Assembly (NCBI GenBank): GCA_002778465.1
Contig: PFBV01000002.1
Coordinates: 2,312 to 66,311, forward strand
Origin: Candidatus Magasanikbacteria bacterium CG10_big_fil_rev_8_21_14_0_10_36_32
Lineage (GTDB): Bacteria > Patescibacteriota > Patescibacteriia > Magasanikbacterales > GWA2-37-8
Direction of reading: 5' to 3'
DNA: 64,000 bases
A program made the position numbers and the translations under genes. This document shows positions 2,760 through 47,284 of the stretch, in pieces; the first letter of the stretch is position 1; the number at the start of each line of letters is the position of its first letter. The notes beneath the pieces are model-generated. The model made no database searches. It saw nothing but the letters and a program-made list of their open reading frames with translations, and was not told the DNA's origin.

Positions 2760-2764
2760 TTTCT

Positions 2765-25644: not shown

Positions 25645-25688
25645 TGTTGTTTTGATTTATGTTATAATTGATAAAGCTTTATAAAATT

Positions 25689-26354
25689 ATGATAGAGGAA
25701 CAAAATCAAGAAAATTCGCAAAATCAGTTTTCCAAAGAACATAAAATCGGGTTGGTTTTATTATCGCTTTTTGCCGTTTTAGCGGTTGGTTTGGGTATTT
25801 TACAAATTAGAAATAATGCTTATCGTCCGTTTGCTTTAAACAATTCAATCCCGCCATTTTTAAATGAAGAAATAAATACCGAGGAAGCATTGCGTTACCG
25901 TGATACGGATTTAGATGGCTTGAATGATTTTGATGAATTATATATTTACAGCACCAGTCCCTATTTGGAGGATACTGATTCTGATGGGGTTAAAGACAAA
26001 GAGGAAATTGACAAAGGACGAAATCCTCTTTGTTATGAAGGAAAAAATTGCGGTTTTAATGATATGAGCATTAATGCCAGTTCATTTCCGGCCAAACAGG
26101 ATAATGTAGCTTTATATGGCGAAGCGGCTCCGCAATCAATGGAAGAATATTTGCAGAATCCTGACACCATTCGTGAATTGTTACTTACTTCAGGTTTGAG
26201 TCAGGAACTAGTTAATAAATTAACTGATGATGATTTAAAGACAATGGCTGGAGAAATTTTTGCATCCACTACTTTAATGACTGCGTCAAGTACGTCGGAT
26301 GAAACTGATTTGAGCGCCACCGCTGAATTTATAAATGATTTAATGAATAAATAA
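25689..26354 (+). CDS. Membrane-anchored protein with thrombospondin-type-3-like Ca-binding repeats
   Basis: DTDLDGLNDFDE and DTDSDGVKDKEE repeats; N-terminal TM helix. ATG at 25689 (ORF track uses a TTG at 25668). Confidence 0.45.
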   Translation: MIEEQNQENSQNQFSKEHKIGLVLLSLFAVLAVGLGILQIRNNAYRPFALNNSIPPFLNEEINTEEALRYRDTDLDGLNDFDELYIYSTSPYLEDTDSDGVKDKEEIDKGRNPLCYEGKNCGFNDMSINASSFPAKQDNVALYGEAAPQSMEEYLQNPDTIRELLLTSGLSQELVNKLTDDDLKTMAGEIFASTTLMTASSTSDETDLSATAEFINDLMNK

Positions 26355-26365
26355 TAATTTTTTAT

Positions 26366-27898
26366 ATGCCACAAAAGAAAATTGTGGTTTGGTTAATTAT
26401 GATTTTTGTATGCGGCGCGTTAGTACGACTGCCGCATTTTTTAACTGTCATTCCCAACGCCGGAGTTTGGGAGTCAAAAATCGCTTGGTATGATGAGGTT
26501 TTGTCTATTCATTTTGCTTCACAAGAAATAAATAGCACAATCGCTTTATCAGGTTTAGACACCAGTCCGTGTCTTTTTTTTATGATTCTTCATTTTTGGC
26601 TTTTGATTTTTAGTAACGCCAGTGTGTTTGTTGCGGCCATTCTGCCTTTTTTGTTCAGTTTAGCCGGCATTGTCGCTATTTATTTTCTCGGTCGGAGAAT
26701 TTACGACGAAAAAATTGGTTTGTTTTCCGCCGCTTTGCTTGCTTTATCTCCTTTAAATATTCAATATGCCACAGAAATCAGAGTCTATTCATTATTGGTT
26801 TTTTTGACAATTTTATTTTTGTTGTTTTTGTGGCGAATTAAGGATTTGAGCAAAATAAAAGATTGGACAGGATTTATCATCTGTTCTTTATTATTGCTGT
26901 ATGCTCATTATACGGCAATAATTTTAATTATTTTTGGTTTTATGTTTTTAGTGTTTTTTAAAAGAAATGAAACCAAGAAAATAATTTTTTCTTTTTTTGC
27001 AATCTCTGTTGGAGTAATTCCTTTAATTTTAATTTTTCAAAGATGGACGGATTTTGTCGGCGCAAATTTTTCTTTTTTTAGCCGTTTTTTTTCACATGGC
27101 GGTTTGTTGTCATTTTTTCAATATTTATATTTTATTTCTTTCGGTTCATCCGGCGCCGATGGAGCGATGATAATTTTTTCGTTGTTGATTGCCGGTTTTT
27201 TTATTTATTTTTGGCGGCGCTCAGTGGATATTAACAGTCGAGTTTTAATTGTTTTCGTTATTGCCGGTTGGTTGGCATTGGCCGGTTTTAAGTTTATTTA
27301 TCATGAACGATATTATTTAATTTTGACTATTCCGCTGATATTATTGGCGGCTGTCGCCTTGCGAATTGTTTTTGAAAAATATCGTCTGGTGAGCGTGATA
27401 GGCGGTTTATTGTTTTTGTTTATTTTTATTTTTTCTTGTTATATTGTTCCACCCGAGCACGCTTATAAATATTTTACGCCTGAGTTTGTTAAGATAATCA
27501 ACAGCCAATATCAAACAGGGGATGTGATAATTGCCGATCATTATAGTAAATTATTATGGAATCAATATTATCCTGGACCGGCTGAAATTAAATTATTTTT
27601 TCCTTATGAAAATGAATTGTTGCCGGCTGATTCAAATTTGCGCTGGCGATTTAGCGATTACGCCAATGTTAATTCTGACAATGTCGTTTTATTTGATAAT
27701 TTAGTAAAAAATGAACAAAGATTTTGGATTGTTATGTTTAATCCTCTAAATTATTCAGTTCAAGATCCGCAAGGATTACTGCCTGAATATTTAGACAGCC
27801 ATTATTCAAGGTGGGCGACTTATTTTTTTCCGCTTTTTGTCTCGAAAAACGACTTTCAGGTTGAATTACGATTATATGTCGTAAAACCAGCTGATTAA
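26366..27898 (+). CDS. GT-C fold membrane glycosyltransferase (GT39/GT83-like)
   Basis: About 11 TM helices; DE motif in the first extracytoplasmic loop (AWYDEV). Confidence 0.55.
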   Translation: MPQKKIVVWLIMIFVCGALVRLPHFLTVIPNAGVWESKIAWYDEVLSIHFASQEINSTIALSGLDTSPCLFFMILHFWLLIFSNASVFVAAILPFLFSLAGIVAIYFLGRRIYDEKIGLFSAALLALSPLNIQYATEIRVYSLLVFLTILFLLFLWRIKDLSKIKDWTGFIICSLLLLYAHYTAIILIIFGFMFLVFFKRNETKKIIFSFFAISVGVIPLILIFQRWTDFVGANFSFFSRFFSHGGLLSFFQYLYFISFGSSGADGAMIIFSLLIAGFFIYFWRRSVDINSRVLIVFVIAGWLALAGFKFIYHERYYLILTIPLILLAAVALRIVFEKYRLVSVIGGLLFLFIFIFSCYIVPPEHAYKYFTPEFVKIINSQYQTGDVIIADHYSKLLWNQYYPGPAEIKLFFPYENELLPADSNLRWRFSDYANVNSDNVVLFDNLVKNEQRFWIVMFNPLNYSVQDPQGLLPEYLDSHYSRWATYFFPLFVSKNDFQVELRLYVVKPAD

Positions 27899-28030: not shown

Positions 28031-31000
28031 ATGATGAAATGTCCGCGAAAAATTAGTCTGAAAATTTTAATGGCCTTATTTATCGTGTCAGGTTTTTTTG
28101 GCACGGCGATTTTTGGAGTGGAAAAAGCTCAGGCGCAATACGATAATCAAATCAATGCTTCGTTTTTATCTTGGCAGGCGCAGGGTGAAGCGGAAAAAGC
28201 CAAGGCCGAAGTTCAGTCAAATTTATTGAAGAATAAAAATTACATGGTGATGAATGCGGTTATTAATGCCATGAGTTATTTTGCCAATAAAATTTCTTAT
28301 GATATGGCTGTTTGGCTGGCATCGGGTGGAAAAGGACAAGCGCCGTTTTCAAGTACTTCCGGATTTTTTAAATATTTAGGGCAAGTAACCGGAGATTCTC
28401 TCGGTGAATCGCTTGGTTCATTGGGTGAGAGTCTTGGTTTAAATATCTGCGATTTGCCGGATCCGCGGCTGGACTTGGCGCTTCAATTAGGTTTAAATTT
28501 TCATTATGCTGAACCGACACCGAAATGTTCCTGGCAGGATTTAAAAAAAGCTTACAGCGTGGAAAATTTTAAAAGTAAATATCTGAGTCAGGAAGGAACC
28601 ATTGGAAGGTTGTCCGCTTCAGTGACGGTTAAAGATACTGATTTTGGCATTTGGACTGACGCTCGCGCTAAGATTGACGGCATAGCTGTTCAAAAAGAAA
28701 ATGCCGCCCAAGCTGATCGTGAAGAAGGAAGCGGTATGAAAGCTGTAACCGATTTAATTTCCGGACAAGTTAAAACGCCGGCCGTGGTAGTGAAAGACAC
28801 GATGATGAAACAGTCGGCTGACAGTAAAATGACAAAAGAGGAAGCAAAAAAGACCGGTGAGGTTTGGGGAGCTTTCGGCGCGGGCGCTACTCAAGTCGCG
28901 TATAAAGCGGCCAGCACTTTTATCAGTACCATGCTTGGTACGGTGCTTAAGAATTTTATGGAGGGTGGTATGTTGCCGGGAGGACACAAAGTTTGTAATC
29001 CGGGTTTGACATTGACCGGTGTTAATTTGGAACCGTGTTCCAGTGATTCTTCAGGCGGCAATAATTTAGCTGATAATTATTACGCTGACGCCAGAAATAC
29101 TGATAATCGTGCCGCCGCTCAAGCTATGTTTAGCCAATTGTTGATACCCCAAATAAAAACTCTGGATAATTATAATTTGATTGCCAGTTTGGCGGAATGT
29201 TCACCTGAAAATTTATCGCCGGACAGTTGTGTGGTAGATCAATCGTTTTTACAAATTTTACAGTCAGCCGATAATGGAGAATCTTTAACTGTTAAACAGG
29301 CGATGGAAAAAGGCTGGCTACACGGAGATTGGAAAATGATTTCATCGCTTGATAAAGCCGCTTCGCAAAAACAAGATTGTTCCCAGAGCGCTTATTGTCA
29401 GCGTAATATGACATTTTTGCGTCAAGCCAGAATTTTGTCGGTTGGTTTTGAATTTGCCGCGCTTTTATCGCCGGTAAATAATCCGGTTAGCTTAAAAGAA
29501 GTAGTAGACAATTTTTATACCGTTGGCAGTCCTTATTATCATTTGATTAATCCGCATTGGGTTATTAAATTGCCAAAAATTCGCTGTAAAGCTTTTACTT
29601 TCAGTTCTATCGCTCAAAATGGCGCGCGATTGGAAGAATGTTCTGATTTGCAACATTGTGTTGGTTACAATAAAGACGGTTCTTGTCAGACTTGGGGTTA
29701 TTGTATGAAAGAACGTCCAATTTGGAAATTTAATGCCAATTACTGTGATTCGCAATATAGCACTTGTCGAGCATTTACTGATTCTGATGGAAATAGCGTC
29801 GGATATTTGGTTAGAACGTTGGATACCAGTTTTTGCGGAGAAGATACAGATGGTTGCCGTCGTTATTCGGCCGGTAAAGTTTATGCCAGCGCTACTAATT
29901 CCGTTTGGTTGCCGGAAGAAATAAAATATAATACCGTTTCTAATTATTTTTACAATTCCAGTTTATATTTTAATAAAAAACTAACCAGCTGTGACGCTAA
30001 AGATGACGGTTGTTCGGCTTTTAAATTAGCTTCTAAAACTGATACTTTATTATATTTGCGCAAAGCGCCGGATTATCTCGGTTGTTATGATGCTGATTTA
30101 AAATCAGTTCCGGCTAAATTATATGATGGAATTGCTTGGCCGAAAAATTTAACCGAATTAAGTTTGGTTACTCCGCAAAATACTGAAGCTTGTAAAAATT
30201 ATGCTCAGGTTTGTTTGCCTGAAGAAGAAAATTGCAATCTCTACACTTCTGTTTTAAATCAGGAAGCAATACCTGGTAAATTTAAACCGGCTGAAATAGT
30301 TTCCATGACCGCCGGTCAGCAATTAGTTTGGAATGATCAGTGCGATGCTTCTTGTGTCGGTTATGCCGCTTATAAAGAAATGCCAAGCAGTTATACTAAT
30401 GGAGAAAATTTGGCATATATTATTCCTTCATCCGGAAACACCTGCACATCTTATGATGCAGGTTGTTCAGCTTTTACGAATTTGAGCACCACTAATCCGT
30501 CAGGTATGGAACAAACTGAATATTTTTCTTATTTGCGTTCCTGTATTTTGCCGGATCAAACAAAACAAAAAACTTTTTATCTTTATGAAAGTTCAGAATC
30601 AGGCGGATATAAACTGCAAACTTTTGTTTTAGAAAAAGACGCTACTGGCGCGCCAAAACAAATTTGGCGAGATATATCTGAAATTGATTCATTTGGTGAT
30701 TGTGATTCAACCAGTTATGCCGCCGGAACGGCTGATCCGGATTGTCATCAGTTTAATGACGATGGTGGAAATATTTATTATAAATATCTTTCAAAAACAA
30801 TTTTAGTATCGGAAAATTGCAATCCTTATCGTTTGAACAATACCGAGTTGGTTGATGGACAATGTCCGTTTGATTTTGACGGTTTTGGCAATCGTGTTGG
30901 TAATGCGGTGGAGAAAATCAATGAGGCTTGTTATTATTATGGTTTGCCGGTAGGAGATACCAGGGGAGCAGGGGAAACAAAAGTTTGTTCAGCCGCGACT

Positions 31001-34000
31001 AATTCATGCCGCGCCTACAAGGGTAATGCCGGCAATAATGTGCGGGTGGTTTTTCAAGATAATTTTGAAAATGAAGAAATAGGCGATTGGTCTGGAGGTT
31101 TGGGCGGCAGTTTGGAAATTTCCTTGGAATCAAATCAAATTAATGGCCATTCATTAAAGAATTTTGGTCAAGATGGTTTTTATCGTCAGAATGTTGAGGT
31201 TGCAGAAGGTAAGAGTTATGTTTTAACTTTTTGGGCCAAAGGTAATGCTATTATTTTTCCTTCTTTTCAAGATGAAGGAGTTTATAAATTAAGTTTTGGT
31301 GATGCGGTTAGCTTGACTGATGTTTGGCATTATTATTCTTTCGGACCGTTAGAATTTAATCAATCAGTTACCAGTACATATTTAAATTTTAATATTTCAG
31401 GTACGGGATTAAAAAATGTTTTTATAGACAATATAAAATTAATGGAAATTACCGATTACCTGTATTTGGTTAAAAACAGTTTAAGTGTTAATCAGATTTG
31501 TGATAGTAATTTGGAAGATAATATGCCGGGTGAGGCGTTGGGTTGCACGGCCTATAAAGATCCATTAAATAATATATATAATTTAACCAATTTCAGTTAT
31601 CTTTGTCGTGAAGCGGCGGTTGGTTGTACTGCTGTGTTGGATACATATAATACTTTGAATACTGCCGAACCGCGTACTTATAATGTGTGGCTTTATGGCG
31701 AGATGATAAATTTAGATGGTCGGAGCGCTGAGGTGGTAATCGGTGGAAAAACTTTTTCATGTATTGTGCCGACAGGAGCGAAAGGTTGTTATGTTGATAT
31801 TTTTGGACCGACTTTGGCGCAAATAGTAAGTGTTAGTGTTCCTGGTATTTTAACTTCTTCCACTATTTATATTCCGGGAGATACGCCAACCAGTTCACCG
31901 ATTTATTTGGTGGCCAACAAATCGGCAACTTGTAAATCTGAAAATATCGGTTGTCGATCGGTTGGAAAAGGCACTGTCACCAGAGATGGAGTATTGAATC
32001 CTTTGTCCAGTGAATATGAAGATGTGGCGGTTAAAAATGATCCGGCGCTGTTTGATGATGTTTTGTGCGGCAGTGAATCGGTAGGTTGCCGCGGTTACAC
32101 ATCCGGTGACAGCAAATATTATTTTAAAGATCCGAAAATTATCGGCCAACGCGTTTGTGCTTATATGTCCGCTAAAAATGATAGTGGCTTGCCGATTATG
32201 GGTTGGTATTGGAAAGATAATAAAATGTGTGGCGATTCATCCGGATTTTGTTCATCAGATGCCGATTGCGCCGCCGGAGTTAAATGTCAAAATGTTCCGT
32301 GTTATCCTCTTTATTATAAATTTAATGAAACACAAGGCGCTATTGAATGGGGATTGTGGTCTTTTGGCAGTACTCAGTATAAAGGTTTTGTGGGACAATG
32401 TCCTGAAGAACAAAACGGTTGTACTGAATTTATAGATCGTGCCAGCAGCGCTCAGGTTTCTGGTAAAAAATGCGCTTTCACTGGCAAAAAATGTGAACTA
32501 AATAGTGATTGCAATGAAGAAGAAAATGATTATTGTAAAGAAAATGTTTCTGGCACTTATTATCTTTTAAATGATGGAGTTTTGGCTGAAACAAAAAATA
32601 AATGTAATGGCATGGTCAGTCAAGCCGAAGGTTGTATTTTGCTTGATCAAACGGACAAGCCGAATAAATATTGGAATACCACTTCAACCTATGAAGTTTC
32701 CCAATCCGCTCAAGATGCTTTTGTTGTGCCAGTAGATAAAGCCGAATTAAACGATGCCAATATAATTTTAAAAGTTACCCACGACAGAGAATGCGCTGAA
32801 TGGGGATATTGCGATTTAAAACAAGATTATAAAGATGAAGATACTGGTGAAACAACTTCTCGTTGTTATCATTTGGGTGTTTGTCAAAAAGCGACCGGTT
32901 CTTCAATTTTTAACAAAGAATGTTTGGTGCCGGTTACTCAATGGGATGATAAAAATCAGGAACTCTCATTGGCTCATTATAATTCCCGTGAAGCTTATTG
33001 GGATTCTTTGGATTACTCCGGTTATTCAGTGCCATGGCTTTACTCAATTGCTGATTTAACCGCTCGTCCGTTGGCTGGTGATAATTTTCATTTGGTTCAT
33101 GTTGATTACAGTGAAGATGCGGCGGGAGATTGTAATGGCAGCGCCGACAATGGAGATGTTTGCGGTTTGGATGATACGGGAAAGTGTTTTAACGGAGAAT
33201 GTTTGCATTCACCAAATAATTATTCCTCTTTGACTAACCATTTAACATTGTTAAATTGTCGTGGTAACGCCGAAGATTCCAGTCCGTTTCCATCATCTGT
33301 TTTGACTGATGAAAGCGCCAGTTTAGATTATAAAATATTTAAATCAGGATTTGAGAGTGTTAATTTATGTTATGATAAATCCGGCAGTGTGGTAAATTGT
33401 GATTGCAGTTATAAAAAATTAAGAACTTCAGCTGGTGATGTTTATACCCCGTCCAATCAGTCAGTTGGCAGTTCATATGTTTGTAGTGGTGGAACAAAAC
33501 AAGGTAAATTCTGTAATGGAAAAGATGATATCACCACTTGCGGCAGCGATGGTATTTGCGGCGTTATTCAAACATTGAGCGCAATGAACGGCTGGCAGGG
33601 ATATTGTTTGGAACGTGATACGCGACAGTTTATCAATGGCACTGAAACCGGAAATTGTTTGACTTGGTGGCCGATTGAAGTTCCGCCGGGGACTACTAAT
33701 ATTTGGGATATTGACGATTCAGCTGGTTATCAAATTGCTGAAGGAAAACAAGACAGGTTTATGTGTTTGGTTAATGAGCCGGTTATTAACGATCCTGAAA
33801 TAATGATGCATATATTATTATATGGGAGTCATGTTTCCGCAGCCAATGATTATAATATTCAGCAATTACCCAAATCTTATAAAATACAAACCGCCGGTCT
33901 TGACCATAGTTTTAAAATAACCGATTTGCCGCCCAATGCGGCTGTATCTGGTTGTTCGGACAATAATGCGGATGATGATTTTTATGACCCGTTACCTGGA

Positions 34001-36127
34001 ACGCCCAGTAATAATGTATATAATTATCAGATATATGACTATGATAGCAATAAAAATTCAAAAGGAAAGTTTTGTCCAATAAACAGAGAAACTTTGCGCA
34101 AGGATGGCGATACAATGCGAATGTGTGCGAATCCAACTTGGGATGATGATAATCAAACCTATTCTGAATGTCCGCCGTCGGGTATTCTCGCTGCCGATGG
34201 TACGCGTTGGGTAAATAACAACTATGAAAATAAATATTTCCATCGCAATGAAATAGAAAGAATTGATATTGTTTTTGATAGAATAGGCGATGATCAATAT
34301 GCTGATGGATATATTAGTTTTATAACAGACAGTATTAACGCTGTTGAAGGTCATGCTTTTGATACGGAAGAACATTTTTTAAATAAAGAAGGAGAAAGCG
34401 CGACTAAGGGCGTGGTTGATAATTATGAAATGAGATGTCCGGATTGGAATAGTATTGAAGATGGATTGGGAAATTTAAGAGCTTGGGAATGGCGCGGTGG
34501 AGTAGGTGTTCCATCGTGGACTTTGCCTGATGCGGATGATACAACATTAAGTAAAATGCAAGTTCTCGCTCAGGGTGTTTGTGAAGATTTATACAGAGAA
34601 GTTCAAGTTAAATCAAGTGAAGTAAATCAGAAAAATTTGGCTATAAGAGTGGTTTGGGATGGAGATTATCATTTACGCGGTATTTGGGTAAATTTGGAAA
34701 ATACGGGGTCGGCTGATGTAAACGCTGGATTCTTTTTCGTAATCCATTTTAATGATGGCCGTTGTGAAAAATTTGCCAAAGTTGCCACCGATACTGCTTC
34801 AAAAGATTTTGCTTTTAAACCATTCACTAATAATTTAGCGACAGGCAAAACAATCAATATGGGTTCCGCGCCGGTTGGTATTACTTTAACTGACAGAGTT
34901 TCTAATTTAAACGGTGGAAATTACGGATTAGCTTGGGGCGAGGGAGAATATTTAGAACCGCCAAGCGCCAGTGTTAAAGAAGCCTTTGTAAATCCGTTTA
35001 TACCATGGCCCAATACGCATCTTTTTATTGATACTGTGATTTTTTCACAGGGCGGCGATTATTTAAAAAATTATGAAATGACCAATTTTAAAGCCGGCGT
35101 GCCGTTGGTTTGGGCAAGATACGGATTGGCAAAATATGAAGACGGAGGTATTTATGATGGACCTGATTATACAACATTTAATAGTGAGATTTTTGATGTT
35201 TCAACTGTAGATATGCCGTGGGAAATTATGTTGGAAAATATGTACGCCAAAGTTTTTGGACAGTATGAGCAAAGTTACAGTGGTGGTATGCCGACTGAAT
35301 TTACATTATTATCCGGCACGGAATTAGATATGGCAAATTCTGCTAACGCTATCAAAAGCGGATTAAAAATTTATCCGCCTCATGTGGCCGCGCCGATTAT
35401 CGGTTCAACCGGAGATGATTGGCAGTTGGATGCCATATCCGTTAATGACAGGGTGTCCGGTGATATTTATTTAGTCAGCGGTTCGCAGGTGCATATTAAA
35501 TTTTATGCTTGGGCTCATGGTAATCAAATGCCATTGAGAAAAATCTGGGTTGATAAAGGTGATGGAATTAAAATCAGCAATGATAGTGTCAGTTTTGGCA
35601 ACCGCAAATTTAAATGCGCCGAAGGCACTTGTGGCGCCACTGCTGGCGGCTGGCAATTTCCTTGTGAAAATAATGATGATTGTGCGCCATTGTATAGTGA
35701 TTCAATCACGGACGATTCTACTGCCTGTTATTATCCGGCTGCATATGACCATCGTAAGTTTGGTAATACCGGAGATACCGGTTGTCATGAAGGTCCGTAT
35801 GATTTTGTTACTGATTTTAATTGTCCTTACGGCGATTTGACGCATTGGCCTGTTAGTTGGTTGGAACCGGAAGAACAGGCTTATATTCAAAGTCAATTTG
35901 GAGATATTAGTTATGTTTGTATGGTACAACCAAAAGTCCAAGTGACTGATAATTGGGGTTGGTGTAATGGAACTTGTAAAACTACTTATGCTGGAGGTGG
36001 TTCTAATATTGAGGGTGATGGTTGTTATGAAGATTATAGTGGGAAAGATTGTTCAACCGACGAATATGGCAATAACAAAGCTTGGACTAAATATAACGGA
36101 AGATTAATCATTATTCCAACACAATAA
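28031..36127 (+). CDS. Giant (~2,700 aa) Cys-rich secreted protein with a CBM-like domain
   Basis: Signal/TM N-terminus. At least ten spaced copies of a [DN]xGCxA[FY]-like motif (DTDGCRRY, DDGCSAF, DAGCSAF, NIGCRSV, SVGCRGY, QNGCTEF, ALGCTAY, AVGCTAV...). CBM4/9-like jelly-roll segment (VVFQDNFENEEIGDW...FWAKGN). ATG ATG at 28031 (ORF track uses a TTG at 28016). Confidence 0.7.
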   Translation: MMKCPRKISLKILMALFIVSGFFGTAIFGVEKAQAQYDNQINASFLSWQAQGEAEKAKAEVQSNLLKNKNYMVMNAVINAMSYFANKISYDMAVWLASGGKGQAPFSSTSGFFKYLGQVTGDSLGESLGSLGESLGLNICDLPDPRLDLALQLGLNFHYAEPTPKCSWQDLKKAYSVENFKSKYLSQEGTIGRLSASVTVKDTDFGIWTDARAKIDGIAVQKENAAQADREEGSGMKAVTDLISGQVKTPAVVVKDTMMKQSADSKMTKEEAKKTGEVWGAFGAGATQVAYKAASTFISTMLGTVLKNFMEGGMLPGGHKVCNPGLTLTGVNLEPCSSDSSGGNNLADNYYADARNTDNRAAAQAMFSQLLIPQIKTLDNYNLIASLAECSPENLSPDSCVVDQSFLQILQSADNGESLTVKQAMEKGWLHGDWKMISSLDKAASQKQDCSQSAYCQRNMTFLRQARILSVGFEFAALLSPVNNPVSLKEVVDNFYTVGSPYYHLINPHWVIKLPKIRCKAFTFSSIAQNGARLEECSDLQHCVGYNKDGSCQTWGYCMKERPIWKFNANYCDSQYSTCRAFTDSDGNSVGYLVRTLDTSFCGEDTDGCRRYSAGKVYASATNSVWLPEEIKYNTVSNYFYNSSLYFNKKLTSCDAKDDGCSAFKLASKTDTLLYLRKAPDYLGCYDADLKSVPAKLYDGIAWPKNLTELSLVTPQNTEACKNYAQVCLPEEENCNLYTSVLNQEAIPGKFKPAEIVSMTAGQQLVWNDQCDASCVGYAAYKEMPSSYTNGENLAYIIPSSGNTCTSYDAGCSAFTNLSTTNPSGMEQTEYFSYLRSCILPDQTKQKTFYLYESSESGGYKLQTFVLEKDATGAPKQIWRDISEIDSFGDCDSTSYAAGTADPDCHQFNDDGGNIYYKYLSKTILVSENCNPYRLNNTELVDGQCPFDFDGFGNRVGNAVEKINEACYYYGLPVGDTRGAGETKVCSAATNSCRAYKGNAGNNVRVVFQDNFENEEIGDWSGGLGGSLEISLESNQINGHSLKNFGQDGFYRQNVEVAEGKSYVLTFWAKGNAIIFPSFQDEGVYKLSFGDAVSLTDVWHYYSFGPLEFNQSVTSTYLNFNISGTGLKNVFIDNIKLMEITDYLYLVKNSLSVNQICDSNLEDNMPGEALGCTAYKDPLNNIYNLTNFSYLCREAAVGCTAVLDTYNTLNTAEPRTYNVWLYGEMINLDGRSAEVVIGGKTFSCIVPTGAKGCYVDIFGPTLAQIVSVSVPGILTSSTIYIPGDTPTSSPIYLVANKSATCKSENIGCRSVGKGTVTRDGVLNPLSSEYEDVAVKNDPALFDDVLCGSESVGCRGYTSGDSKYYFKDPKIIGQRVCAYMSAKNDSGLPIMGWYWKDNKMCGDSSGFCSSDADCAAGVKCQNVPCYPLYYKFNETQGAIEWGLWSFGSTQYKGFVGQCPEEQNGCTEFIDRASSAQVSGKKCAFTGKKCELNSDCNEEENDYCKENVSGTYYLLNDGVLAETKNKCNGMVSQAEGCILLDQTDKPNKYWNTTSTYEVSQSAQDAFVVPVDKAELNDANIILKVTHDRECAEWGYCDLKQDYKDEDTGETTSRCYHLGVCQKATGSSIFNKECLVPVTQWDDKNQELSLAHYNSREAYWDSLDYSGYSVPWLYSIADLTARPLAGDNFHLVHVDYSEDAAGDCNGSADNGDVCGLDDTGKCFNGECLHSPNNYSSLTNHLTLLNCRGNAEDSSPFPSSVLTDESASLDYKIFKSGFESVNLCYDKSGSVVNCDCSYKKLRTSAGDVYTPSNQSVGSSYVCSGGTKQGKFCNGKDDITTCGSDGICGVIQTLSAMNGWQGYCLERDTRQFINGTETGNCLTWWPIEVPPGTTNIWDIDDSAGYQIAEGKQDRFMCLVNEPVINDPEIMMHILLYGSHVSAANDYNIQQLPKSYKIQTAGLDHSFKITDLPPNAAVSGCSDNNADDDFYDPLPGTPSNNVYNYQIYDYDSNKNSKGKFCPINRETLRKDGDTMRMCANPTWDDDNQTYSECPPSGILAADGTRWVNNNYENKYFHRNEIERIDIVFDRIGDDQYADGYISFITDSINAVEGHAFDTEEHFLNKEGESATKGVVDNYEMRCPDWNSIEDGLGNLRAWEWRGGVGVPSWTLPDADDTTLSKMQVLAQGVCEDLYREVQVKSSEVNQKNLAIRVVWDGDYHLRGIWVNLENTGSADVNAGFFFVIHFNDGRCEKFAKVATDTASKDFAFKPFTNNLATGKTINMGSAPVGITLTDRVSNLNGGNYGLAWGEGEYLEPPSASVKEAFVNPFIPWPNTHLFIDTVIFSQGGDYLKNYEMTNFKAGVPLVWARYGLAKYEDGGIYDGPDYTTFNSEIFDVSTVDMPWEIMLENMYAKVFGQYEQSYSGGMPTEFTLLSGTELDMANSANAIKSGLKIYPPHVAAPIIGSTGDDWQLDAISVNDRVSGDIYLVSGSQVHIKFYAWAHGNQMPLRKIWVDKGDGIKISNDSVSFGNRKFKCAEGTCGATAGGWQFPCENNDDCAPLYSDSITDDSTACYYPAAYDHRKFGNTGDTGCHEGPYDFVTDFNCPYGDLTHWPVSWLEPEEQAYIQSQFGDISYVCMVQPKVQVTDNWGWCNGTCKTTYAGGGSNIEGDGCYEDYSGKDCSTDEYGNNKAWTKYNGRLIIIPTQ

Positions 36128-36140
36128 AAAATAAATTAAA

Positions 36141-36178
36141 AAATCCCCCAACAATTTAGTTGGGGGATTTGTTTTTTT
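36141..36178. terminator. Bidirectional rho-independent terminator between convergent genes
   Basis: AAATCCCCCAAC-AATTTA-GTTGGGGGATTT hairpin flanked by an A-run and a T-run. Confidence 0.6.
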
Positions 36179-36222: not shown

Positions 36223-36747
36223 TCAAGCGTAACCTGACTGAATCAGATTGCCATTGGATAGTATAGTCGCTATCAGCCAGCCGCAACTGCCGGTTTTTAC
36301 CAGTGGCAGATTCTTTCCTTGATAATCTCCCTTGAGAAAAGCGAGAGTGCCGTTTCCGGTAAAGTTTACCACGCACATATTTCCGATTTCCGGAGTGATT
36401 GTGACGGTCATCACCATGGTAGTTTCAGTGTTGTACCAGTCGCCGGCGATATGTGTCAGCTCATTGCAACTAGCAGGATCAATGAAAACCAGTTTGGACA
36501 ATTCCGTGTCCATCACACTGTTTTCCGGCTCGGTAATGATTGGCGGCAGATTGAGATCTGAATCGCCGTTCATTTCTGAATCGCCGTATTCATCCATCAA
36601 TTCGCCACCATCAATGTCTTCGTCATAAGGATAACATCCAGATGTTATAACGGCGAACAAGAGCATTACAGCAATGGCTATAATTGCAATGACAATTGTG
36701 GCAACCGCTCCTACTGTAACATGGGAATCATAATGTAAATTTCTCAC
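36223..36747 (-). CDS. Hypothetical small membrane-anchored acidic protein; GC-rich (~48%), likely horizontally acquired
   Basis: GTG start 5 nt after an AGGAGG SD; N-terminal TM helix; the only minus-strand gene within about 50 kb; GC well above background. Confidence 0.5.
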   Translation of the reverse strand: MRNLHYDSHVTVGAVATIVIAIIAIAVMLLFAVITSGCYPYDEDIDGGELMDEYGDSEMNGDSDLNLPPIITEPENSVMDTELSKLVFIDPASCNELTHIAGDWYNTETTMVMTVTITPEIGNMCVVNFTGNGTLAFLKGDYQGKNLPLVKTGSCGWLIATILSNGNLIQSGYA

Positions 36748-37094: not shown

Positions 37095-40000
37095 ATGCTA
37101 CAGACTTTAGCCCGGACCGGGCGAAAATTTTGGAATTTTATCAGACCGCGCAGAAAGTGGGGTCTTATTTCGCTTTTTATTTTTGCCGGTGTCGGTTTGT
37201 GTGTTTATTTTTTTGGCGGAACATTGGTAAATTCAGCCGGTGGTTCTGAAGAAGTATATCAAGGCACTTTGCTTACTAAAATAGTAACCGATATTATGGT
37301 TTGGATTGCCGGATTTTTTATTCAGGCAACAGTTTTTATAATGGATTTTGTTATTGAAATAGCCGGTTATAGTAATTTTATAAATTCCAAAGCGGTTTTA
37401 TTTGGTTGGACGCTGGTGCGTGACATTGCCAATATGTTTTTTGTTGTGATTTTATTGATAATCGCTTTTGGTACGGTTTTGGGCGCTGAAACATATAGCT
37501 GGAAAAAACTTTTGGTAAAATTTGTTTTAGCGGCCGTGTTAGTGAATTTTAGCCGGATAATTTGCGGAATAATTATTGATGCCGCTCAGGTGTTTATGAT
37601 GACTTTTTTGAATGGTGTGGCGGCGGTAGCCGGTGGAAATATTATTAATGCTTTTAAATTAAATGATGTTTTAAGTTTTGATCCGAATGTGCAACCGGAA
37701 GGAATGACAGATGTCAGTGTTTTAGGTTCAGCCATTGCTTGTATGTTTTTTGCGGCGATTGCCGCCTTTACCATCGGCGCTTATTTTATTGTTTTACTCG
37801 GACGTTTAGTGACTTTATGGATTTTAATAATTTTATCGCCGTTGGCTTTTGTTTTAAATGTTATTCCAAAAACTCAATCTTATGCCGGACAATGGTGGTC
37901 TGAATTTACCAACAATGTTATTGCCGGTCCGATTTTGGCTTTTTTTCTTTGGTTGTCTTTTGCTGTGGTTGGCGATGGAATGCCTCATAATGAATTAAGC
38001 GATAATTCGGCTTTTATGTTAAATACCGAATCAGTGGAAAGTACGGGGAATAATAATGTAATGGGTGGTTTGGCTAAAGTTATGGAATGGGGAAATTTGG
38101 CAAATTTTATAATCGCCGTCGGTATGCTTTTAGCCGGCGTAAAAGCAACTCAAAAATTAGGTGTGATTGGTTCCGGTATGCTCGGGAGCGCGGTGGAAAT
38201 GGGCAAAAAAGTTGCGACAGTGGCGACTGGAATAGCGGCTGGCCGATGGTTGGCGCAAAAAGGTGTTGAAGGAACAAAAATTGCAGGCAAAGGCGTGTTG
38301 ATGAAAGCGCCATTTGTTGGCGGAGATGCTTGGAAACGGCGCGGTAGAACTATTGCCGGAAAAGTGTCTTCAAAAGTTCAGGATATTCAATATGCCCGCG
38401 AACAGGCGGCAAAAAAATTAGAGAAAAAAGGTGGTTTTGGAAAATTTGCCGCTGGAATTATTGAAACTGCAACTAAAAAAGAAGAAGCGTCTAAACAATG
38501 GGGGAAATTAGCCGCGATGAAAAAAGAAGTCAGAATGGAAGATATGGGTTTAGGTTCGCGTCAAGTTGGAAAAGATACTTTAGTGGAAAAAGTTCGTTTA
38601 GATACGCTTAAGGCGCAGAGTACTGCCGCCAAAGAACGCTGGTATAATAATGCTTTAGTTAAATTTTATAACGCGCCGGATGAATTAAAAGATTTACAAA
38701 CTCAGCGTGGCGGTTTAGCGACCAGAGAATCAGCGGAACAGGCGATTGTTCAGGAAGCCAGTTTGGAAATTGCTAAAGCTCAAGCTGAGTTGGAGAACAT
38801 AAAAGACAATCCGGAAAAAATCAAACAATTGAATGATAGTATTGCGCAGAGTACTGCTATTAAACAAAATGCTGAACAAAATTTATCTCAGATTGTTGAT
38901 ACCAAAAAAACACTTGATAAACAAGTTGATACTATTTTCAAAGACGATAAAAAATGGAACAAAGACAGTTTGATTGGAAAGGATATTTTAGAACAGAGAA
39001 TCCAAAAGGAAAAAAATATGTCTGATGTGGCCGCCGCTCAAGGTATGATGGAATTAAGTTATTTAAATACCGAAGCCGGCAGACAAGCTCAAGTCAACGC
39101 GGCGGAATCAAAAATTATTCAACAACAGATGGGAGAAACAGTCAATGCTCAAAAACAATTGGTTGAATTAAAAAAGATTGAAGAATTATTGAAAAAGCCG
39201 CAGCCGGGACAAGATGCGTCTGCTTTGTCCGCACGTTATCAGGCTTTGCAGCAGGATATGTATTCCTCCAAAGCCGGCGGAGAACAATTGCGGATTGATC
39301 AAGCTCGCGAGGCGGAAAAGAAATTAGCTGTGGCTCGTGATGAAAAATTAAAACAATCCAGTCAGTTACCTCGTTATTTAAGCCAAGTTTTGCAAAAACA
39401 AAATAAAGAGGATATTGATATGTATTCCTCAAAAAACTTTGACCAAATGATGGCTAATATTAAATTTTTGAGCGGTCAAATGGAAAAAGAGACAGATGTT
39501 GACAAGAAAAGCATAATGCAAAAAGATTTACAGAATTGGGTGGTAGCCTCCTTTAATCGCGGTTCTGATTTTGGCTTAGCCGCTTTGAGTACGGCAAAGA
39601 AAAATAAAGATATTTCCGCTGATAATGTGGATAGCGCCAGAGCTGCTCACTTATCGGCCTTTTTAGGGGAAGAAGTGGAACAGTCATCTGAAGGTGTGAA
39701 TAAGGCTATGGAAAAAATGAAAAAATTGCAGGGTGAAAACTTTGACGCTTTTATGACGAATTATGTTGGCGGTTTATCAATGATGGCTGATAATGGCGCG
39801 GTAACGCACGGCGGTTTGTATAAAATGGTGACTGATAAAAATACCGGCCGGCAGACTTATGAAGTGACACATAAAGATTATGATAAAGATTTGATTAAAT
39901 CCAAAAGAGATTATCATTTGTCTCAGGCTAGGCAAGCCGGTCGCGGATTTAATGGTTCTTTAGATTTTAAAGACGGTAAATTTAAATTAGACAGTGAAGT

Positions 40001-40247
40001 ATCGGTTAACCATGTTGTAAATTTGATTGGCGCTAGAACTTCGGTCGGTTATGCTAATATGCACAAGATGAATTTAGATTCATTAAGCTCTGCCATTGAA
40101 AATACTGATAAGGAAGAATTTTTGAAACAATTAGGTGAAAAATTAAGTAAAAGCATTACTGAAACAAAAGCGATGGAGATGTTATTAAAACGCATTTCGG
40201 GAAAAGCTTTAGATAAAATTAATAAATATATTACATCAAATAAATAA
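37095..40247 (+). CDS. VirB6/TrbL-like polytopic membrane protein with a long C-terminal coiled-coil extension
   Basis: About 7 TM helices in the first 330 aa, followed by ~700 aa rich in Q, K and E (coiled-coil-like); located at the head of a VirB4-containing cluster. Confidence 0.5.
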   Translation: MLQTLARTGRKFWNFIRPRRKWGLISLFIFAGVGLCVYFFGGTLVNSAGGSEEVYQGTLLTKIVTDIMVWIAGFFIQATVFIMDFVIEIAGYSNFINSKAVLFGWTLVRDIANMFFVVILLIIAFGTVLGAETYSWKKLLVKFVLAAVLVNFSRIICGIIIDAAQVFMMTFLNGVAAVAGGNIINAFKLNDVLSFDPNVQPEGMTDVSVLGSAIACMFFAAIAAFTIGAYFIVLLGRLVTLWILIILSPLAFVLNVIPKTQSYAGQWWSEFTNNVIAGPILAFFLWLSFAVVGDGMPHNELSDNSAFMLNTESVESTGNNNVMGGLAKVMEWGNLANFIIAVGMLLAGVKATQKLGVIGSGMLGSAVEMGKKVATVATGIAAGRWLAQKGVEGTKIAGKGVLMKAPFVGGDAWKRRGRTIAGKVSSKVQDIQYAREQAAKKLEKKGGFGKFAAGIIETATKKEEASKQWGKLAAMKKEVRMEDMGLGSRQVGKDTLVEKVRLDTLKAQSTAAKERWYNNALVKFYNAPDELKDLQTQRGGLATRESAEQAIVQEASLEIAKAQAELENIKDNPEKIKQLNDSIAQSTAIKQNAEQNLSQIVDTKKTLDKQVDTIFKDDKKWNKDSLIGKDILEQRIQKEKNMSDVAAAQGMMELSYLNTEAGRQAQVNAAESKIIQQQMGETVNAQKQLVELKKIEELLKKPQPGQDASALSARYQALQQDMYSSKAGGEQLRIDQAREAEKKLAVARDEKLKQSSQLPRYLSQVLQKQNKEDIDMYSSKNFDQMMANIKFLSGQMEKETDVDKKSIMQKDLQNWVVASFNRGSDFGLAALSTAKKNKDISADNVDSARAAHLSAFLGEEVEQSSEGVNKAMEKMKKLQGENFDAFMTNYVGGLSMMADNGAVTHGGLYKMVTDKNTGRQTYEVTHKDYDKDLIKSKRDYHLSQARQAGRGFNGSLDFKDGKFKLDSEVSVNHVVNLIGARTSVGYANMHKMNLDSLSSAIENTDKEEFLKQLGEKLSKSITETKAMEMLLKRISGKALDKINKYITSNK

Positions 40248-42463: not shown

Positions 42464-42889
42464 ATGCAACAATTTGTCGTACCTCAATTTATTGATGTGG
42501 AAGATAAAATTTTCGGACCAATCACGGCGCGGCAGTTTGTGATTTTATTGGTGGCAACATTAATTATTTTTCTCACTTATAAATTAGCTGATATTACATT
42601 ATTTATTTTTTTAACTTTGGTAATAGGCGGTTTAGCTTTAGTTTTTGCTTTTGTTAAAGTAAACGGACAGCCGTTCCATTATGTTATTTTAAGCATGATT
42701 CAGACATTACGCCGACCGAGTTTAAGAGTTTGGAATAAAACTTTTGACAAAAGCGAATTAACTCATTATCGTGAAGAATCAAAAGTTGTGGTTGTTGAAA
42801 AAATTAAACGAGTGCCAAAATTGTCTTACAGCCGTATTCGAGATTTATCTTTGGTGGTAAATACCGGCGGTTATTATAAACCTGAATAA
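42464..42889 (+). CDS. VirB3/PrgI-like small two-TM protein
   Basis: 141 aa with two adjacent TM helices; sits immediately upstream of the VirB4-like region. Confidence 0.4.
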   Translation: MQQFVVPQFIDVEDKIFGPITARQFVILLVATLIIFLTYKLADITLFIFLTLVIGGLALVFAFVKVNGQPFHYVILSMIQTLRRPSLRVWNKTFDKSELTHYREESKVVVVEKIKRVPKLSYSRIRDLSLVVNTGGYYKPE

Positions 42890-42891
42890 TT

Positions 42892-43581
42892 ATGAAAAAT
42901 AAAAAAGCGGTCAATAAAAGAAATGCCGTTCCGACTACACAAAAAAATACGGCTATCGCTGAAATTAAACATGATACTGTAGTGGTAAAAGATGGTACTT
43001 TGCGTTCGGTTTTGATGGTGTCCAGTATTAATTTTGCTTTAAAAAATGACGATGAACAGCAGGCGATTGTGTCTAATTATGTTTCTTTTTTAAATTCGCT
43101 TGATCATCCTTTGCAAATTCTTATTCAATCCCGTCAGCTTAATATAAAACCGTATTTGGAAAGATTGGCGGACAAAGAAAAAGAACAGCCAAATGAATTG
43201 TTAAGAATGCAAATTGCCGATTATCGTTCGTTTGTTTCAGAATTGGTCAATTTGGGAAAAATTATGAGTAAACATTTTTTTGTGGTGGTGCCTTACGATC
43301 CGCTGACAAATAAAAAAAGAGGTTTTTGGTCGCGTTTGCTTGAAGTTATTAATCCGGCCATTACAGTTCGTTTGAAAGAAGAAAGATTTTTGCAGAGAAA
43401 GAGAGATTTGGATATGCGAGTAAGACAAATTCAAGGCGGTTTGCAAAGTATGGGGTTGGAAGTTGTTAAATTAGATACTCAATCGTTGATTGAACTTTAT
43501 TATTCCGCGTATAATCCGGATATCGCTCTTAGCGAACCGTTGGCGGATGTGGTGGAAACCATGCAATTAGAAAACGCTTAA
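42892..43581 (+). CDS. Hypothetical protein; possibly a detached VirB4 N-terminal domain
   Basis: 229 aa; ends 10 nt before the VirB4-like ATPase ORF in a different frame; combined length (~850 aa) matches full-length VirB4. Confidence 0.45.
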   Translation: MKNKKAVNKRNAVPTTQKNTAIAEIKHDTVVVKDGTLRSVLMVSSINFALKNDDEQQAIVSNYVSFLNSLDHPLQILIQSRQLNIKPYLERLADKEKEQPNELLRMQIADYRSFVSELVNLGKIMSKHFFVVVPYDPLTNKKRGFWSRLLEVINPAITVRLKEERFLQRKRDLDMRVRQIQGGLQSMGLEVVKLDTQSLIELYYSAYNPDIALSEPLADVVETMQLENA

Positions 43582-43591
43582 TTTTTTATTT

Positions 43592-45463
43592 ATGGCATTT
43601 AAACCAAGCTCAATTAAAGCAGAAAAAGAATCTACTGGTCGTCTTAAAGAAGATGAAAACAAAATAAAGAAGCAGACGGCCGAAGAAATGATTACTTTGG
43701 AAGAAGAAAAGATTTTTCGCGAAGGTGTTGTCAGTATCCGTGATTTAATAGCGCCTTCCGCTTTTCGCGTTGAATCCAGTTTTATACAATTGGGTGATTT
43801 ATATTGCCGGACTATTTTCATTACCGCTTACCCGAGATATATTTCCATCGGCTGGAGTTCGCCGGTTATTAATTTGTCGGTCACCATGGACATCTCAATG
43901 TTTTTTTATCCGGTTAAATCAGCTGTTATTTTAAAACAATTAAAAAATAAAGTCGGCGCTTTGGAAGCGCAAATTAGTTCCGACACAGAAAAAGGCGCGC
44001 CTCGCGATCCAATTCGGGAAACAGCTTTGCGCGATATTGAACAATTGCGAGATAATTTAACGCAAGGAATTGAACATTTTTTTCAATTTTGTTTTTATGT
44101 TACTCTTTACGCCAAAAGTAAAGAGGAATTGGATCAAACCACTGAAGATATTGAAAATATTTTCGGTTCAAAACTGATTATGAGTCGCAAAGTTTTATAT
44201 CAGGCGGAACAAGGTTTTAATTCCACTTTACCGATGGCAAATGACGAATTGTACATTGCTTTTAATATGAATTCGTCTCCGATTGCCGCTTCTTTTCCAT
44301 TTATTTCCGCGGAATTAACCTCAGATGATGGTATTCTTTATGGCATTAATCGCCATAATAACAGTTTGATTTTGTTTGACCGGTTTTCTTTGCAAAATGG
44401 CAATATGGTGGTTTTCGCTTCGGCCGGTGCCGGAAAAAGTTACGCCGTTAAACTGGAAGTTTTGCGCACAATGATGATGGGAACCGATGTGATGATTATT
44501 GATCCGGAAATGGAATATAAACATCTTTGTGATGCGGTTGGTGGAACTTACATTAGTATTTCGTTGTCTTCGGAAGCAAAAATCAATCCATTTGATTTGC
44601 CCCGTCCGGTCGGTTCTGATATTTCCACTGAGGATATTATTCGTAGCGCCGTTATTACCATGAAAGGCTTGTTGCGTATTATGTTGAATGGTTTGACGGT
44701 GGAGCAGGATTCAATTATGGATAGAGCTTTGATTGAAACTTACGCCAAGAAAGATATTACGCCGGAGGCGGATTTATCCAATATTAAACCGCCGATTATG
44801 CAGGATTTAGTGGAAGTTTTGGAAGGTATGCAAGGTTCCGATGAATTGGTAATGAAATTAAAAAAATATACCGAAGGAACTTTCAGTGGACTGTTTAATT
44901 CGCCGACTAATGTTGATGTTAAAAATCAATTGGTGATTTATAGTGTTCGTGATTTAGAGGATGAACTTCGCCCGATTGCTATTTATTCAATCGTTAACTA
45001 TATTTGGAATGTTGTACGTTCGGAAAGAAAAAAACGAGTTTTGGTGATTGATGAAGCTTGGTGGCTGATGATGCATGAGGACAGCGCCAGATTTATTTAT
45101 GGTTTGGTTAAACGCTGCCGAAAATATTATCTCGGAGTGACTACTATCACTCAGGATGTGAATGACTTTTTGAAATCTCAATATGGACAGGCGATCGTTA
45201 CCAACTCGGCTTTGCAGTTGTTGTTGCGTCAGTCGCCGGCGGCGGTGGATTTGGTTCAGCGGGTGTTTATGTTGACTGACAGCGAGAAATATTTGTTATT
45301 GGAAAGCGGAGTGGGCGAGGGTATATTTTTTGCCGGCAATAAACATGCCGCCATTAAAGTTGTTGCTTCTTATACAGAAGATCAGTTGGTTACCACCAAT
45401 CCGGAACAATTATTGGCTATAGAAAAAGCAAAGCGCGAATTTGAAGAACAGAGTAAAAAATAA
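43592..45463 (+). CDS. VirB4/TraC/TrbE-like conjugative-type ATPase
   Basis: Walker A (ASAGAGKSY), Walker B (VLVIDEAWWL), and a VirB4-like C-terminal region. Confidence 0.8.
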   Translation: MAFKPSSIKAEKESTGRLKEDENKIKKQTAEEMITLEEEKIFREGVVSIRDLIAPSAFRVESSFIQLGDLYCRTIFITAYPRYISIGWSSPVINLSVTMDISMFFYPVKSAVILKQLKNKVGALEAQISSDTEKGAPRDPIRETALRDIEQLRDNLTQGIEHFFQFCFYVTLYAKSKEELDQTTEDIENIFGSKLIMSRKVLYQAEQGFNSTLPMANDELYIAFNMNSSPIAASFPFISAELTSDDGILYGINRHNNSLILFDRFSLQNGNMVVFASAGAGKSYAVKLEVLRTMMMGTDVMIIDPEMEYKHLCDAVGGTYISISLSSEAKINPFDLPRPVGSDISTEDIIRSAVITMKGLLRIMLNGLTVEQDSIMDRALIETYAKKDITPEADLSNIKPPIMQDLVEVLEGMQGSDELVMKLKKYTEGTFSGLFNSPTNVDVKNQLVIYSVRDLEDELRPIAIYSIVNYIWNVVRSERKKRVLVIDEAWWLMMHEDSARFIYGLVKRCRKYYLGVTTITQDVNDFLKSQYGQAIVTNSALQLLLRQSPAAVDLVQRVFMLTDSEKYLLLESGVGEGIFFAGNKHAAIKVVASYTEDQLVTTNPEQLLAIEKAKREFEEQSKK

Positions 45464-47131: not shown

Positions 47132-47221
47132 AAATACCCATTTAAACGGGTATTTAAATACGAGATGATTTGTTCAGTGTTTGACTTTTCAATTTATTTT
47201 TGCTATTATTATCCGAGAATT

Positions 47222-47274
47222 GGAGAGGTGGCTTCTGAGCTCCTGCCTGCCGGTAGGCAGGGGTCGAAAGCGGT
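47222..47274 (+). pseudogene. Decayed duplicate of the first 29 nt of tRNA-Ser(GCU), with a 20-bp palindrome inserted in the D-loop
   Basis: GGAGAGGTGGCT-TCT-GAGCT-[CCTGCCTGCCGGTAGGCAGG]-G-GTCGAAAGCGG matches nt 1-29 of the intact tRNA at 47529; interrupted by TCT and the palindrome. Confidence 0.5.
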
Positions 47275-47284
47275 AATAAAATTT

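Follow-up and report, generated by a model that had tools for sequence, protein, structure and literature searches.

What does a very large, cysteine-rich secreted protein do when its gene lies next to a type IV secretion system (T4SS)-like cluster in a Candidate Phyla Radiation (CPR) bacterium? CPR bacteria (Patescibacteria), whose life is spent attached to host cells, make up a large part of bacterial diversity. The question is raised by a 64,000-nucleotide stretch of contig PFBV01000002.1 from Candidatus Magasanikbacteria bacterium CG10_big_fil_rev_8_21_14_0_10_36_32 (hereafter the window, in whose numbering all positions are given), in which one gene at 28031–36127 encodes such a protein. 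T4SSs of Patescibacteria are of the monoderm MPF-FATA type, and their surroundings showed no PrgB-like adhesin (PMC12102498); the role of the system has been described as completely unknown (PMC11665869). In the Saccharibacterium Southlakia epibionticum, from the one lineage open to genetics, epibiotic growth requires the T4SS and several surface proteins that bind glycans, all of them essential (PMC10633639). Here we show that the giant protein carries a recurrent, strongly conserved cysteine-pair element and belongs to a large uncharacterised family of these ultrasmall bacteria. From sequence, structure models and analogy, we give an even chance to the reading that it is a disulfide-stiffened surface protein contacting host glycans, possibly retained by a small partner protein with thrombospondin type-3 (TSP3) repeats, and serving the neighbouring T4SS-like machine in the manner of the PrgB-type adhesins of Gram-positive conjugative systems.

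The giant protein is identical to NCBI hypothetical protein COU29_00535 of Ca. Magasanikbacteria and contains 99 cysteines (3.67%), as against 0–6 in each of ten neighbouring open reading frames (ORFs) checked. Its layout, in amino acid (aa) numbering from the ATG at 28031, is as follows.

28031–36127, plus strand: giant ORF, ATG at 28031, 2,698 aa plus stop, uninterrupted (a TTG at 28016 is an alternative start)
28031–28135, plus strand: predicted Sec signal peptide (aa 1–35), with a basic n-region, a 19-aa hydrophobic core and A-Q-A followed by Q
28136–29146, plus strand: conserved N-terminal region (aa 36–372) from the conservation profile, with long helices predicted at low confidence
29168–29590, plus strand: small alpha-rich domain (aa 380–520), confidently modelled
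29585–33766, plus strand: all-beta Cys-rich core (aa 519–1912), from conservation and the structure model of aa 519–1700
31040–31450, plus strand: CBM4/9/16/22-like beta-jelly roll (aa 1004–1140), from Pfam, family profile and Foldseek
33767–35380, plus strand: hypervariable Cys-poor region (aa 1913–2450), from identity to relatives and the family conservation profile
35381–36124, plus strand: Cys-rich C-terminal region (aa 2451–2698), moderately conserved, with consensus 'NQMPLR..VDWGDG' and 'DNWGWC'

Only one hydrophobic segment, aa 7–33, is able to span a membrane, and A35 is at least 90% conserved across the family within a 'PAxAQ' consensus. We read this N-terminal segment as a cleavable Sec signal peptide and infer cleavage from the conserved AxA site, in keeping with the secreted protein of ~2,700 aa proposed in a preliminary description of this DNA. 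AlphaFold2 (AF2) models cover aa 1–560 and aa 519–1700, the latter built from 33 sequences. In the first, aa 1–372 reach a predicted local distance difference test (pLDDT) score of only 35–55 despite strong family conservation, whereas aa 380–560 are modelled confidently (pLDDT 85–96); this part includes aa 451–500, the 50-residue block with the highest conservation in the protein, and the invariant residues R464, E474, A476, P508 and W510 of the alpha-rich domain. Foldseek found no match for the model in the PDB at E below 1. The core model is nearly all beta (mean pLDDT 74.9, predicted TM-score 0.59), and only its jelly roll was matched among PDB structures and viral models (BFVD), with a global TM-score of ~0.1. 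Sequence and profile searches against PDB sequences, NCBIfam and Pfam returned the carbohydrate-binding module (CBM) domain only.

Within the core, the cysteines follow a recurrent pattern. The preliminary description had quoted nine motif strings, all of which are present in the protein, and had summarized them as [DN]-x-G-C-x-[AS]-[FY]; as written, this pattern matches 2 sites only and misses an upstream partner cysteine. The actual form is C-x5-G-C-x-x-[FY], with the partner exactly 7 residues upstream of the cysteine in 'GC'. Expressed as C-x6-C-[RST]-x-[FYV], the motif has nine exact matches (aa 572, 602, 654, 805, 986, 1192, 1301, 1346 and 1457), whereas 2,000 shuffles of the Cys-rich region (aa 519–1900) averaged 0.11 and never exceeded 2. 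A Cys–Cys spacing of 7 occurs 13 times where 3.6 ± 1.8 are expected, a count reached in 0 of 2,000 regional shuffles. About five variant copies accompany the exact ones (C-x6-C at 721/728/735, C-x3-C at 771, C-x14-C at 1157, and C-x5-C at 1407 and 1488). All C-x6-C elements fall inside the core, aa 519–1912; those elements, with the expanded-loop variant, are located as follows.

29744–29776, plus strand: C-x6-C element 1, CDSQYSTCRAF (aa 572–582)
29834–29866, plus strand: C-x6-C element 2, CGEDTDGCRRY (aa 602–612)
29990–30022, plus strand: C-x6-C element 3, CDAKDDGCSAF (aa 654–664)
30191–30244, plus strand: double variant CKNYAQVCLPEEENCNLY (aa 721–738), two overlapping C-x6-C units
30443–30475, plus strand: C-x6-C element CTSYDAGCSAF (aa 805–815)
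30986–31018, plus strand: C-x6-C element CSAATNSCRAY (aa 986–996), just ahead of the CBM-like domain
31499–31555, plus strand: expanded-loop variant CDSNLEDNMPGEALGCTAY (aa 1157–1175, C-x14-C), both cysteines present in 171/171 relatives
31604–31636, plus strand: C-x6-C element CREAAVGCTAV (aa 1192–1202)
31931–31963, plus strand: C-x6-C element CKSENIGCRSV (aa 1301–1311)
32066–32098, plus strand: C-x6-C element CGSESVGCRGY (aa 1346–1356)
32399–32431, plus strand: C-x6-C element CPEEQNGCTEF (aa 1457–1467)

Conservation was assessed on 172 cluster representatives aligned to the family profile, mostly less than 50% identical to each other. Both cysteines of the canonical motifs are kept in 168–171 of ~170 relatives, and a logo pooled over ten sites reads C-x-[AES]-x-x-[VN]-G(73%)-C-[TRS]-[AE]-[FY](76%). 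Seventy cysteines, an even number, reach a conservation above 80% across the family, 64 of them in aa 519–1912. The AF2 model shows an identical local structure at every canonical motif ('E--HHH--EEEE'): a strand ends at the first cysteine, a one-turn helix follows, and the second cysteine opens a new beta-strand. A disulfide that closes a loop of 8 residues would fit this geometry, and on the model the motif cysteines probably form local disulfides that stiffen the core.

How long is the repeated unit? When motif-centred windows of 53 and 111 columns were compared with hhalign, in-register alignments extended over only 11–37 columns, the median for the 111-column windows being 22 columns around the motif; four pairs were longer (57–78 columns) at lower probability, and out-of-register alignments reflected a different motif copy within the window compared. 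The median hhalign probability was 51% for motif-anchored windows versus 0.6% for random windows of the same region, where the five top control pairs (26–82%) all included windows containing a motif by chance. Successive canonical copies are spaced 30, 52, 151, 181, 206, 109, 45 and 111 residues apart; with variant copies counted, the spacing is 30–181 aa and irregular. Because only ~12–30 residues align between copies and their spacing is irregular, the recurring unit is a short element of 12–30 residues, and the repeated module of ~100–150 aa that the motif had been taken to mark is ruled out. The alternative then envisaged, in which the motifs share no common domain and arise from compositional bias alone, holds in its first half, as no common-domain alignment emerged; the second half is excluded by the shuffles, which the motif exceeds by far. 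The short cysteine-pair structural element is real, non-random and strongly conserved. A second candidate repeat, 'C-x2-W-G-Y-C' (aa 552, 1588, 1853 and 2642), gave hhalign probabilities of 0.2–38% and was rejected.

The jelly roll embedded in this core is supported by three approaches. Pfam CBM_4_9 (PF02018) matches aa 1006–1120 of the giant protein with E=0.0043 (17.9 bits) and 11 of 14 relatives at E<0.01, with a best E-value of 4.5e-10; in five Pfam-scanned relatives it scores 37–52 bits, above the gathering score, an equivalent position in the family alignment being assumed. Searched against PDB sequences, the family profile (positions 977–1119) matches 1gui (CBM4) with E=1.7e-5 and 2zey (CBM16) with E=1.2e-4, and 2zey, 2zew and 2zex (all CBM16) at E about 1e-4. 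The modelled stretch (pLDDT ~75–85) superposes by Foldseek on 4xuo, 4xun, 2xom and 2zex, which represent CBM22, CBM61 and CBM16, with TM(target) of 0.65–0.74 and root-mean-square deviations of 3.3–4.5 Å. As family profile, matches in relatives and model superposition agree, the predicted CBM4/9/22-type jelly roll at aa 1004–1140 is confirmed, bearing out the CBM4/9-like domain of the preliminary description at family level by profile and by fold. The window around it (aa 1001–1100) is less conserved than its flanks, with 33–42% versus 50–66% identity to the closest relatives.

An exhaustive HMMER search with aa 519–1700 as query, clustered at 50% identity, placed the protein in a family of at least 1,310 cluster representatives at E ≤ 1e-3, 1,025 of them at E ≤ 1e-30. 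Members are nearly all 2,500–3,300 aa long, the match begins at about residue 515–540 of each, and the gene is present as a single copy per locus. Apart from its CBM domain the family is uncharacterised and lies outside Pfam, NCBIfam and solved structures; full-text literature searches found no description of it. It is restricted to CPR-type contexts, and is counted among large bacterial surface or adhesion proteins. Some members come from contigs whose labels read Methanoregula sp., Candidatus Udaeobacter sp. or 'uncultured Gammaproteobacteria' (L009, L034, L012 and ~40 further loci in our numbering); where the flank is long enough, as in L012 and L034, the CPR synteny is the same, and the labels look like mis-binning or default names rather than true occurrence outside CPR. 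In one relative (L003, 18720–26861), another giant gene of 2,713 aa comes after the family gene; its product is Cys-poor (0.15%) and not homologous.

Conservation along the family is high over ~aa 50–1912, collapses in aa 1913–2450 and partly recovers in aa 2451–2698. The closest relatives, 42–50% identical overall, are 45–70% identical in most of the core versus 13–35% over most of aa 1901–2400; the latter range holds in four of five 100-residue windows, the fifth (aa 2201–2300) being at 31–45%. The region of relatives equivalent to aa 1913–2450 holds MAM (aa 1912–2004), PA14/GLEYA (aa 2213–2314) and BppA-type CBM domains (aa 1934–2022 and aa 2310–2406); a dockerin is also present in relatives, and Laminin_G_3 is inserted in the core at ~aa 600–850. 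Adhesins and receptor-binding proteins show this kind of pattern, a conserved shaft joined to a ligand-binding region that evolves fast and can be swapped. A variable region near the C-terminus could also mark the protein as a secreted effector, a polymorphic toxin or an enzyme processing polysaccharides, with its active part there, and such an activity would agree with the CBM-type domain, common in secreted glycoside hydrolases and toxins such as Vip3, and with the poorly conserved small gene that follows the giant gene. However, no catalytic, toxin, Rhs or YD domain was detected in the giant protein or 14 relatives, and T4SS substrates do not typically carry a Sec signal peptide. The variable block lies inside the protein, with a conserved C-terminal region after it, unlike the C-terminal cassettes of polymorphic toxins (Rhs, CDI, MAF-like), and the small downstream gene is convergent and not found in other loci, rather than a co-directional immunity gene. 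We therefore consider this explanation very unlikely.

Beyond the giant gene, the window continues with a hairpin, a convergent gene and the T4SS-like cluster.

36141–36170, bidirectional: intrinsic-terminator-like hairpin with a 12-bp stem, 6 G-C pairs and T-runs on both strands
36223–36747, minus strand: convergent gene whose small acidic product has an 'SGC' site resembling that of lipoproteins
37095–40247, plus strand: first T4SS-like gene, encoding a 1,050-aa polytopic VirB6/TrbL-like protein with ~7 transmembrane (TM) segments
42464–45463, plus strand: genes for PrgI (VirB3-like), a TrsD/TraC-like protein and the VirB4 ATPase

The product of the first T4SS-like gene is called VirB6/TrbL-like because proteins matching TrbL_3 are homologous to its N-terminal region (E 1e-52 to 1e-57); the two genes between it and PrgI have no family assignment. 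The giant gene ends at a bidirectional terminator, as the preliminary description had stated. Its placement immediately upstream of the T4SS-like cluster stands as adjacency, the cluster beginning 968 nt downstream, with the qualification that the terminator and the convergent gene intervene; in the window, the giant gene and the T4SS genes are separate transcription units. A minus-strand gene occupies the position of the convergent gene in L001, L005 and L006 with weak similarity (15–32%), and tblastn with the convergent gene at 36223–36747 found no match in any other locus.

Is this adjacency preserved elsewhere? One genome per GTDB species was scanned; relatives were found in 312 stretches, from which 78 loci were kept. 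Homologues adjoin VirB4-type clusters in other CPR genomes as well: of 30 loci with 4 kb or more of flank, 25 have a VirB6-like gene downstream, at a median gap of 1.25 kb, and PrgI is downstream in 20/29 loci with at least 9.5 kb. The arrangement is kept in relatives only 27–28% identical (L004, L085, L086), with a 17-nt gap between giant gene and VirB6-like gene in L085, and in the P0030 subfamily, including a Falkowbacteria protein (L088, L089); L090 has a TrbL_3-like gene. The same synteny would apply equally if the giant protein were an integral extracellular part of the CPR T4SS, namely a stalk, conduit or cap replacing missing outer components, and not a separate adhesin. In that case the conserved N-terminal region might fold only within the assembly, as its poor modelling as a monomer would lead one to expect, and Patescibacteria T4SS loci indeed have few recognisable VirB8 homologues and no virB4-associated outer-membrane core components except rare VirB9/VirB10 matches (PMC12102498). 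Such a role is nonetheless improbable in our estimation: the giant protein shows no profile or fold similarity to known T4SS components (Pfam, NCBIfam, PDB sequence and fold searches), it forms a separate transcription unit in the window, some loci have no T4SS nearby, and a hypervariable region of ~540 aa is unexpected in a structural core part.

Upstream, the genes are Sua5, DUF4015, KsgA, a TSP3-repeat membrane protein and a PMT_2 glycosyltransferase, of which the last two are located as follows.

25668–26354, plus strand: TSP3 partner gene, whose 228-aa product is a single-pass membrane protein carrying two thrombospondin type-3 repeats
26366–27898, plus strand: PMT_2 (GT39/ArnT-like) polytopic glycosyltransferase, between partner gene and giant gene

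The likely true start of the partner is ATG 25689, and its one TM segment spans aa 24–49. Its repeats, DTDxDGLxDxDE and DTDSDGxxDKEE, have D/G positions invariant across six orthologues, and the Asp-rich loop pattern D-x-D-x-D-G-x-x-D-x-x-E occurs twice; the Pfam TSP3 match on partner orthologues is only 'faint' or 'weak'. Judged by this sequence pattern, the repeats are of the TSP3 type, predicted to bind calcium. The partner gene lies immediately upstream of the giant gene in 74/75 loci and overlaps it by 11 nt in L085. It looks like an obligate partner, and we propose it as an anchor or chaperone for the giant protein. The PMT_2 gene, by comparison, is near the giant gene only in the window and in L001/L002/L011 (one other genome, where it lies upstream of the partner gene); its product could glycosylate the giant protein.

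Taken together, these features can be assembled into the host-contact reading outlined at the start. The giant protein would first be exported via the Sec pathway by its N-terminal signal peptide. Behind this peptide, a highly conserved helical, alpha-rich part would lead into a long all-beta core with the embedded jelly roll, which many local disulfides would stiffen, with at least 14 cysteine pairs of one shared structural element. The mature protein would stand on the CPR cell surface, where the small TSP3 membrane protein may hold it. Its jelly roll and variable region would bind host-cell glycans, and this contact could supply what the neighbouring T4SS-like machine needs. The adhesin idea fits because aa 1913–2450 are hypervariable, relatives carry lectin-type domains and PrgB-like adhesins are reported to be absent from Patescibacteria T4SS loci (PMC12102498). 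The adhesin interpretation, already offered in the preliminary description, is reasonable and somewhat strengthened, and has the status of a candidate. A bolder version, which we think rather unlikely, holds that the family and its TSP3 partner may be the missing extracellular arm of the Patescibacteria T4SS, a disulfide-stapled beta architecture that would dock onto host glycans, with the hypervariable lectin region setting host range, and position the VirB6/VirB4 channel for exchange.

Several observations weigh against the host-contact reading. The CBM_4_9 score of 17.9 bits in the giant protein lies below the Pfam gathering score of 25.9 bits, and the conserved residues of the jelly roll are structural and calcium-site positions, without a demonstrable sugar cleft. 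After signal-peptide cleavage, nothing recognisable would be left in the giant protein to anchor it to cell wall or membrane; neither an LPXTG motif near the C-terminus nor a C-terminal hydrophobic tail or TM segment was found in it. A DsbA-type gene was not found in the window; DsbA/Thioredoxin_4 genes adjoin the giant-gene/T4SS locus in two Falkowbacteria-type relatives (L088, 28379–28799; L090, 2848–3507), indicating that related CPR genomes encode extracytoplasmic disulfide oxidoreductases. The remaining points concern gene order. The strong bidirectional terminator and the convergent gene part the giant gene from the T4SS genes in the window; T4SS genes are not within 10 kb downstream in several loci (5/30 species-representative loci; L003, L005, L087); and the synteny of KsgA and Sua5 with the giant gene is as conserved as that of the T4SS genes. 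Since KsgA and Sua5 are equally syntenic, gene order may reflect lineage history, and a functional link to the T4SS is suggested only.

These gene-order observations are what one would expect of a general envelope or surface-layer scaffold, a cell coat or spacer without a tie to the T4SS, whose adjacency would be gene order inherited in small syntenic genomes. DUF4015, too, equals the T4SS genes in the tightness of its synteny with the giant gene, and a scaffold could well be very large, conserved and present in one copy per locus. Yet T4SS adjacency survives down to 27% identity in at least two subfamilies, labelled Magasanikbacteria and Falkowbacteria, and the gap to the VirB6-like gene is as short as 17 nt in one locus. 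In addition, no SLH or other known S-layer anchoring domain was found in the giant protein or 14 relatives, and lectin domains swapped within a hypervariable region point to ligand recognition more than to a uniform coat. A scaffold is accordingly possible without being the explanation we would expect.

Other features of the window are recorded here. Just beyond the T4SS cluster, a ComF-like protein (46142–46852, plus strand) combines a double zinc ribbon with a phosphoribosyltransferase; its position matches the comF/T4SS co-localisation reported for class ABY1, whose T4SS loci commonly include comF (PMC12102498). Also near this cluster, on its upstream side, are genes for a ComEC-type competence protein (12797–14278, plus strand) and a metallo-beta-lactamase-fold protein (15129–15986, plus strand). 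A GIY-YIG nuclease ORF of 120 aa (47165–47527, plus strand) stands alone in the gene-poor gap after ComF and may be a homing endonuclease or mobile insertion. A second large protein of 1,921 aa (3918–9683, plus strand) has Big_6, Big_13 and InlB-B-repeat-like domains; genes for three stand-alone response-regulator receiver proteins and a histidine kinase with multiple PAS domains flank its own (2370–3157, 9688–12411 and 12417–12794). Across the whole window (1–64000), nearly all ORFs lie on the plus strand and every 2-kb bin has a positive GC skew; the monotonic rise of the cumulative skew places the window on one leading-strand replichore.

The family offers a concrete candidate for a host-contact component in the Magasanikbacteria/Falkowbacteria branch, and it defines a short cysteine-pair element and large conserved regions beyond Pfam, NCBIfam and PDB entries. 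CPR organisms are generally considered anaerobic fermenters. If the disulfide reading is true, it would imply heavy extracytoplasmic disulfide use in such supposed anaerobic fermenters.

How, finally, does the giant protein compare with known systems? With CBM4, CBM9, CBM16 and CBM22 modules (e.g., 1gui, 2zex, 4xuo) it shares the predicted jelly roll at aa 1004–1140, including the typical 'FE...W' start and 'DN' end; unlike in those modules, the jelly roll makes up ~5% of the protein and is joined to no glycoside hydrolase. Phage receptor-binding or tail-fibre proteins with CenC/BppA-type CBMs match the jelly roll structurally, the variable region of relatives holds a CBM of the BppA-domain-1 type, and a conserved shaft with a variable ligand-binding part is common to both; in contrast to phage fibres, the global TM-score is ~0.1, there is no phage context and the giant gene sits in a conserved chromosomal locus. 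The glycan-binding surface proteins of Southlakia epibionticum (VCBS, dockerin, FN3) are likewise envelope proteins of Patescibacteria; they carry domains that bind polysaccharides and have been proposed to target glycans of the host (PMC10633639), although they come from a different class (Saccharimonadia) with different domain content, and homology is not established. The remaining comparison is with PrgB (aggregation substance) and the adhesins of Gram-positive MPF-FATA T4SSs. The giant protein differs from PrgB in having no sequence or domain homology, LPXTG sortase signal or polymer-adhesin (GbpC-like) domain (Pfam, NCBIfam, PDB), in being about twice as long and cysteine-rich, and in forming a separate transcription unit in the window. 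It resembles PrgB in being a large, Sec-exported surface protein, by prediction, with a lectin-like domain on a long stalk, in the position of its gene just upstream of PrgI/VirB4-type T4SS genes, to which it is adjacent in 25/30 loci and from which a terminator and a convergent gene part it in the window, and in the role proposed for both, cell–cell contact for a secretion machine.

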